A stretch of 64,000 nt of DNA from Escherichia phage Mizar. The translations under genes were made by a program, and so were the position numbers. The number at the start of each line of letters is the position of its first letter. Within the stretch, counting starts at the first letter, position 1. Shown piece by piece: positions 16,218-16,415 of this stretch. The DNA lies in the sequence record PV714129.1, one strand, 5' to 3'. The notes under the pieces were generated by a model, which did no database searches, had not been told where the DNA came from, and saw nothing but the letters and a program-made list of their open reading frames with translations.

Positions 16218-16415
16218 ATGTTTAAACTTCCATCGTTAATCAACGCTATTAAAGGCAATAAAAAGAAAACTGCTATCGCTGCAATAGTTGTAGGTGGCAT
16301 TATTTCATGGAACTTCGGGATTGCACCATTGTTAGTTGCCCATGGTATTATAGTTCCTTCTGTTCCATTGGATACTGTAGTTGATTTGGCCTTTGCTATT
16401 ATAGGGCTTGTTTAA
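16218..16415 (+). CDS. small hydrophobic protein (65 aa, two predicted TM segments), opposite strand
   Basis: ATG preceded by a canonical SD (AAGGAG, about 8 nt spacing); fills the gap between gene 56 and gene 61; it is the only convincing plus-strand ORF in the window. Confidence 0.4.
   Translation: MFKLPSLINAIKGNKKKTAIAAIVVGGIISWNFGIAPLLVAHGIIVPSVPLDTVVDLAFAIIGLV

Follow-up and report, generated by a model that had tools for sequence, protein, structure and literature searches.

The small plus-strand open reading frame (ORF) between genes 56 and 61 of Escherichia phage Mizar is a real and conserved gene under purifying selection, with a conserved promoter box upstream, conserved synteny, and a single hydrophobic helix in its product. 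Taken as a whole, the evidence describes a genuine accessory gene of the Tevenvirinae that is transcribed late and encodes a bitopic inner-membrane microprotein, a reading to which we assign a probability of roughly 85%. Its late timing, its N-in/C-out topology, and its function are the parts of this reading that we infer. The gene is not new; it is an already annotated Tevenvirinae accessory gene that is carried as a "hypothetical protein" in hundreds of T4-like records.

A lone plus-strand gene in the gene 56-gene 61 interval

The window (i.e., the whole 64,000-nucleotide stretch analyzed) belongs to a Mosigvirus (RB69-like) genome, and a 1.85-kb stretch of it is 97.8% identical to Shigella phage Shf125875. 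The small ORF starts with an ATG at 16218, ends with a TAA stop at 16413-16415, and fills the 282-bp gap between genes 56 and 61 (Table 1), where the start of gp56 was adopted from the annotation of relatives. Minus-strand ORFs of at least 70 amino acids span 90.6% of the 64-kb window, and the small ORF is the only gap-filling plus-strand ORF in it with both a Shine-Dalgarno (SD) sequence and an ATG. Among relatives, all 13 of the 13 neighboring annotated coding sequences lie on the minus strand. An earlier note, made from the sequence alone, had described a 65-amino-acid plus-strand ORF with an AAGGAG SD sequence in a gap of about 280 bp, standing alone among minus-strand genes, and this description agrees with our results.

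Two other features of the region were recorded. The spackle gene (18812..19105) lies approximately 2.4 kb from the small ORF. A second stretch of the window (13438..13695; 258 nt) is also without a minus-strand ORF of at least 70 amino acids; it contains an 85-amino-acid plus-strand ORF without an SD sequence, and small minus-strand genes are probably located inside it.

Table 1. Features of the small gene, its neighbors, and the promoter-like motif in the 64-kb window
Feature	Position(s)	Strand	Remarks
Coding sequence, 65 codons (65 amino acids), MFKLPSLINAIKGNKKKTAIAAIVVGGIISWNFGIAPLLVAHGIIVPSVPLDTVVDLAFAIIGLV	16218..16415	+	PHROG 2024 member, equivalent to RB69ORF029w
Shine-Dalgarno sequence AAGGAG	16207..16212	+	5 nt 5' of the ATG
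Late-promoter-like box AATAAATA	16189..16196	+	21 nt upstream of the ATG; T4 consensus TATAAATA, A(-13) variant
Gene 61 (gp61, DNA primase)	16412..17434	-	PHROG 47, E 1e-101; convergent neighbor, conserved synteny anchor
Gene 56 (gp56, dCTPase)	15608..16129	-	PHROG 173, E 5e-45; divergent neighbor
Palindrome TTAA	16412..16415	.	Overlapping stops of the small ORF (+) and gene 61 (-)
Basic N-terminal region	16218..16268	+	Residues 1-17, 5 Lys, short helix 4-11; predicted cytoplasmic
Transmembrane helix (predicted)	16269..16340	+	Residues ~18-41, with W31, N32, and P37
C-terminal 24 residues	16341..16412	+	H-G-x3-P loop, amphipathic helix 51-62; predicted periplasmic or interfacial
ATAAATA sites	3996, 16190, 62953	+	
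ATAAATA sites	15250, 47609, 55424, 55436, 58604, 58827	-	
ORF starts behind ATAAATA	15218, 16218, 47579, 55403, 58577, 58802		soc (15218); the ORF under study (16218); minus-strand ORFs (47579, 55403, 58577, and 58802)

Selection on the reading frame and distribution of the family

The earlier note had left room for the ORF being fortuitous, and it proposed the conservation of the reading frame and the codon-substitution pattern in related phages as a check. We ran this check on a codon alignment of 17 nucleotide sequences, all distinct and intact, from the three genera Mosigvirus, Tequatrovirus, and Gaprivervirus, with two frameshifted copies left out. The annotated frame was free of stop codons in all 17 sequences and had a pooled within-genus pN/pS of 0.24, compared with 7 to 124 stops and pN/pS values of 0.35 to 2.2 for the remaining five frames of the same sequences. 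Codon position 2 was the least variable, the numbers of variable sites at codon positions 1/2/3 being 6/0/11 in Mosigvirus, 8/3/12 in Tequatrovirus, and 12/2/11 in Gaprivervirus. Between genera, pS was approximately 0.7 (i.e., synonymous sites were saturated) and pN was approximately 0.32. By our own arithmetic from the base composition (37% GC), the chance of a 65-codon open frame is about 1% per frame. The small ORF is thus a genuine gene under purifying selection and not a fortuitous one. Lack of conservation of the frame in closely related genomes, which the earlier note had named as a ground for abandoning the gene, was not what we found, because the frame is kept in relatives across at least eight genera. 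Its description of a convergently oriented gene for a small hydrophobic protein was correct, the product being a predicted membrane protein.

It is scarcely credible that the interval was kept for noncoding reasons, such as promoter or origin elements of gene 56, and that base composition left the frame open by accident. In favor of this view, the interval must include the region upstream of gene 56, a weak sigma-70-like match lies on the minus strand (16243..16215) within the 5' end of the ORF, and the gene is missing from the T4 and T2 reference annotations. However, the substitutions are codon periodic, with the low pN/pS reached in this frame alone and without a stop in three genera; protein conservation remains at 20 to 34% identity in other genera that have a different neighbor gene; and a diverged tandem paralog has been retained in Gaprivervirus. 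The sigma-70-like match (TTGATT-17-CATAAT, 9/12; 16215..16243, minus strand) faces gene 56 from within the 5' end of the small ORF. A minus-strand sigma-70 promoter was ruled out as the cause of the conservation, since the match reaches only 9/12 and such sites were below chance expectation in the promoter scan (4 versus 9.7 expected).

The protein matched PHROG 2024 ("unknown function") with an E value of 1.9e-27 over residues 1-65 of the 65-position profile, and so did the homologs from T4, Jiaodavirus, Gelderlandvirus, and Kanagawavirus and the second Gaprivervirus copy (E values of 1.7e-15 to 4.6e-31). Family, length, genomic position, and strand are the same as those of RB69ORF029w, and the window gene is that gene, with no difference between them. 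In the annotations of relatives, its product is a hypothetical protein "similar to RB69ORF029w" in some cases and a "putative transmembrane protein" in others. The identical 65-amino-acid sequence was found in 217 contigs and under many NCBI accessions, every one of them "hypothetical"; Shigella phage Shf125875 is one of the many Mosigvirus records that have it. Homologs were detected by tblastn in 692 phage records, with identities of >95% in Mosigvirus, approximately 54% in Tequatrovirus (including T4), and 45 to 49% in Gaprivervirus. A profile hidden Markov model (HMM) search of 1.84 billion representative proteins returned just nine matches, all of them small phage proteins or fragments, and the family is therefore narrow. 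Weak HMM matches, followed by tblastn, led to homologs in Jiaodavirus, Gelderlandvirus, Moonvirus, and Kanagawavirus, and the family thus extends over at least eight Tevenvirinae genera. A 72-amino-acid protein of an ENA metagenome (P0037) has T4-type residues 1-30 fused to a reverse-transcriptase-like "YADDTTL" and looks like an assembly chimera.

All 12 of the 12 homologs inspected in annotated records (eight genera) are arranged tail to tail with the 3' end of gene 61. In Jiaodavirus, Gelderlandvirus, Moonvirus, and Kanagawavirus, the small gene lies on the strand opposite its neighbors, and a 4-nt stop overlap is usual; the TTAA overlap with gene 61 also occurs in T4, Melville, Merlin, Entb_45, and KLB31. 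The neighbor on the side away from the primase gene varies: the window has gene 56, T4 has dam, Merlin and Kanagawavirus have a MazG-like gene, and PKO111 has a large ORF. Beyond the Tevenvirinae, the gene was absent from Slopekvirus Matisse, Krischvirus GEC-3S, and Acinetobacter phage Konradin, where the next gene follows gene 61 after 7 to 14 nt. Klebsiella phage PKO111 has a GC-rich hairpin (aaggggcttcggcccctt; ~1690-1712 of its locus) between the small gene and gene 61, which replaces the TTAA overlap.

Gaprivervirus genomes have a second, diverged tandem copy that begins 8 nt after copy 1 and keeps the protein motif; copy 2, and not copy 1, overlaps the gene 61 stop. This second copy is intact in three genomes (L006, 2707..2907, plus strand; L013 and L019, 1707..1907) and is a pseudogene in two (VR20-like and CJ20), where a TGA at codon 2 is accompanied by a frameshift or a deletion. 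Single-base frameshifts interrupt the homologs of T4_ev240 (2409..2608 of its locus), where the loss of 1 nt created an A5 run, and of ERS-1 (2492..2691 of its locus); a truncated 41-amino-acid form makes up a cluster of seven members. These frameshifted and truncated copies may reflect genuine gene disruption or errors in sequencing. In view of the frameshifted copies in ERS-1 and T4_ev240 and the seven-member truncated cluster, phages can probably do without the gene in some conditions, e.g., in culture.

The earlier note tentatively expected other genes in the 56-61 interval of T4 and no antisense gene there. The former expectation was right, with dam located between genes 56 and 61 and thus replacing gene 56 as the other neighbor; the latter was wrong, because both T4 and T2 carry a tail-to-tail homolog that is left out of their RefSeq records. 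The T4 homolog (NC_000866.4, 17738..17938, plus strand) lies inside the 309-bp dam-61 gap and is 54% identical to the window protein. It has an AAGGAGG SD sequence, the TTAA stop overlap with gene 61, and an ATAAATA box at the same 21-nt spacing (GATAAATA, versus AATAAATA in the window). T2 has an intact homolog in its dam-61 gap, also tail to tail with gene 61 (locus L031, ~1953-2075). A Pyrodigal-annotated T4 record does call the homolog; the exact T4 protein had no NCBI accession in a collection of 15 billion proteins.

Promoter-like signal and predicted protein

Each of the 15 distinct homolog upstream sequences (eight genera) had an [N][A/T]TAAATA box 14 to 22 nt 5' of the ATG, against an expected background of 0.02 per region, and the bases flanking it have diverged among homologs. 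The box of Entb_45 is a perfect TATAAATA, that of the window departs from this consensus at position -13, and those of Melville and Merlin (ATTAAATA) depart at two positions. Among T4 late promoters, 32 of 50 sites have the perfect consensus, A at -13 is the commonest variant (9 of 50), and late transcripts run in either polarity (Geiduschek and Kassavetis, PMC2988020). A T4 dRNA-seq preprint (10.1101/2024.04.04.588121) gives 150 start sites for T4, of which 22 are antisense. The ATAAATA motif is 3-fold depleted in the window (9 copies versus 28 ± 5 in shuffles), and for seven of the nine copies, an ORF of at least 30 codons starts 20 to 32 nt downstream. These ORFs include soc, which is a late gene in T4 and serves as a positive control for the box. 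The ATAAATA-preceded ORFs resemble genes that lie within the early region but are driven by late promoters. Two of the minus-strand ORFs encode distinctive N termini, signal-peptide-like at 55403 and hydrophobic at 58577.

Promoters of T4-type late (gp55-dependent) genes have a TATAAATA-type box about 6 nt before the mRNA start and lack a -35 element. The small gene has the sequence marks expected of such a gene, with a box of this type that is present and conserved and a motif that is depleted elsewhere and associated with ORF starts. A GGAG/GGAGG SD sequence is found at the same place in all homologs. These signals suggest a late-expressed gene with a gp55-type promoter, a transcription start at approximately 16202, and a leader of approximately 16 nt. 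No intrinsic terminator was found after the ORF on the plus strand, where the first weak one is at 21813; the transcript may therefore run on antisense into gene 61.

An AlphaFold2 model built from a 24-sequence alignment (pLDDT of 85.4) contained helices at residues 4-11, 15-41, and 51-62 and a loop at residues 42-50, with pLDDT block means of 88 to 92 for helix 15-41. The earlier note had predicted two transmembrane segments, and we found support for only one of them. On the Wimley-White scale, one 19-mer is strongly hydrophobic (-6.3 kcal/mol in the window and, for T4 and TH41, -11 to -13). The other candidate segment reaches only marginal values (-1.3 to +0.8 kcal/mol), includes two Asp/Glu residues in the copies of the window, T4, and Gaprivervirus, and forms a helix of only 12 residues in the model. 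D52 and D56 are located on one face of this C-terminal helix, and such an acidic face of an amphipathic helix is present in the window, T4, and Gaprivervirus copies. The product is probably a single-pass (bitopic) inner-membrane protein. Because five Lys/Arg residues lie on the N side of the transmembrane helix and none lie on the C side, the positive-inside rule places the N terminus in the cytoplasm, and an N-in/C-out topology is likely.

W31, P37, and G43 are invariant throughout the family, and N32, P47, and G63 are nearly so, giving the signature W-N-[FY/L]-x3-P-x-A-x3-G-x3-P. The polar Asn in the middle of the membrane suggests helix-helix association. Prompted by the Gly/Ala-rich Mosigvirus helix, we considered a releasable transmembrane helix of the SAR type, which was ruled out for the family in view of the strongly hydrophobic T4 and Gaprivervirus helices.

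Searches of Pfam, NCBIfam (E values up to 10), and PADLOC (E values up to 1) gave no match for the window, T4, and Kanagawavirus proteins. PDB profile matches to the TM4 segment of the nicotinic acetylcholine receptor (nAChR) and to YejA were dismissed as composition-level similarities (E ≥0.05), and a Foldseek search against BFVD returned family members only, one of which was labeled "Holin." No characterized protein in Pfam, NCBIfam, PADLOC, PDB, or BFVD was similar, and any functional assignment is therefore a guess. The libraries and literature searched assign no function to PHROG 2024 or RB69ORF029w. Literature searches on RB69ORF029w, stIII, T4 antisense and late promoters, ribosome profiling and unannotated ORFs, and Tevenvirinae small membrane proteins yielded nothing specific to this gene.

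Possible functions

In the mechanism that we propose, the gene would be transcribed late only, from its own gp55-type promoter (AATAAATA, 16189-16196), and translated from a strong SD sequence behind the short leader. The transcript would run clockwise, in the direction opposite to that in which genes 61 and 56 are transcribed at early and middle times. The Lys-rich N terminus would remain in the cytoplasm, one helix would cross the membrane, and the short C-terminal tail would lie on the periplasmic face, with the polar mid-membrane motif making helix-helix contacts in the membrane late in infection. As to what these contacts serve, we tentatively suggest a nonessential modulator of the envelope or lysis program, or of a membrane-acting host abortive-infection system, which would not be a holin itself. 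We know of no r-type or lysis mutations that map to the small gene, and the literature searches likewise yielded none. A more speculative and rather doubtful version is an unrecognized late inner-membrane component that would be a lysis-timing partner of the holin T and the antiholin RI or a late counter to membrane-based abortive infection, and whose read-through transcript might silence primase mRNA late. With the gene missing from the reference annotations of T4 and T2, such a component could have escaped notice for decades.

The product is unlikely to be a lethal protein that permeabilizes the inner membrane as infection ends, whether a holin- or pinholin-like membrane protein or a small hydrophobic toxin. 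The earlier note had raised a toxin- or holin-like factor and an immunity or exclusion protein as possible identities, which we regard as guesses. Like holins and antiholins (T and RI of T4; the class III, single-transmembrane gp17.5 of T7), it is small, probably late, and membrane inserted, with a predicted N-in single transmembrane helix; the late-promoter box fits such a role, and the phage OE5505 homolog (A0A482MZV5) is named "Holin" in UniRef. Only one submitter used this name, the other source names shown all being "hypothetical," and we regard it as unsupported. Holins typically have a hydrophilic, highly charged (usually basic) C-terminal tail. In contrast, the C-terminal 24 residues of the window protein contain no Lys or Arg and two Asp and are otherwise hydrophobic; this short C terminus is free of basic residues in the copies of the window, T4, and Gaprivervirus, and the other copies have at most one. 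T and RI have a periplasmic globular domain, which the window protein lacks. It has no sequence or profile similarity to holins or antiholins, with no holin-family match in Pfam, NCBIfam, or PHROGs, and its gene is linked to primase and dCTPase genes rather than to an endolysin or spanin gene. Disrupted copies occur in viable phages, and T4-type phages already employ the holin T. Type I toxin-like peptides differ in that their translation is curbed by an antisense small RNA or by a weak or occluded ribosome-binding site, whereas the window gene has a strong, exposed, and conserved AAGGAG/GGAGG SD sequence. We saw no dedicated antisense small RNA locus; the antisense strand carries gene 61/56 read-through only.

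The prospects are distinctly poor for an Imm- or Sp-like factor of superinfection exclusion or immunity. Imm and Sp are likewise small T-even envelope proteins, sp belongs to the same gene neighborhood (the small ORF lies ~2.4 kb from spackle), and the tail that is predicted to face the periplasm is conserved. Imm and Sp, however, are active from early in infection, and their genes are transcribed together with the early ones, in the counterclockwise early/middle transcripts. The window gene is unrelated to them in sequence and is encoded on the other strand; upstream of it, a late-type signal was the only promoter signal found, and no source name or PHROG match seen links it to Imm or Sp. The conserved late-promoter box in particular argues against an early superinfection-immunity role.

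The transcript itself could be the functional product, with the ORF secondary: a late clockwise RNA that runs antisense into gene 61, gene 61.1, and beyond would shut down or degrade the early mRNA of the primase region. This idea fits the absence of an intrinsic terminator-like site on the plus strand behind the small ORF, as well as the 4-nt overlap of its stop with that of the converging gene 61, which is kept across genera. At several T4 sites, both strands are known to be transcribed, at different times (PMC2988020). Purifying selection on the amino acid sequence and the conserved strong SD sequence, however, make it very unlikely as the main function, and the GC-rich hairpin between the ORF and gene 61 in PKO111 would limit read-through. 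Antisense action is possible as an additional role, but it cannot account for the conservation of the protein.

The small gene passes every computational test of whether it is real and should not be dismissed as an antisense artifact. It is an apparent late gene with a conserved gp55-type promoter box, as judged at the sequence level, and its omission from the T4 and T2 annotations is worth recording, given that annotation-based gene-level transcriptomic, proteomic, and CRISPR interference (CRISPRi) screens would miss it. As a Tevenvirinae-restricted family that lies tail to tail with the primase gene and has an invariant polar motif in its membrane helix, it offers a cheap and well-defined knockout target in T4.
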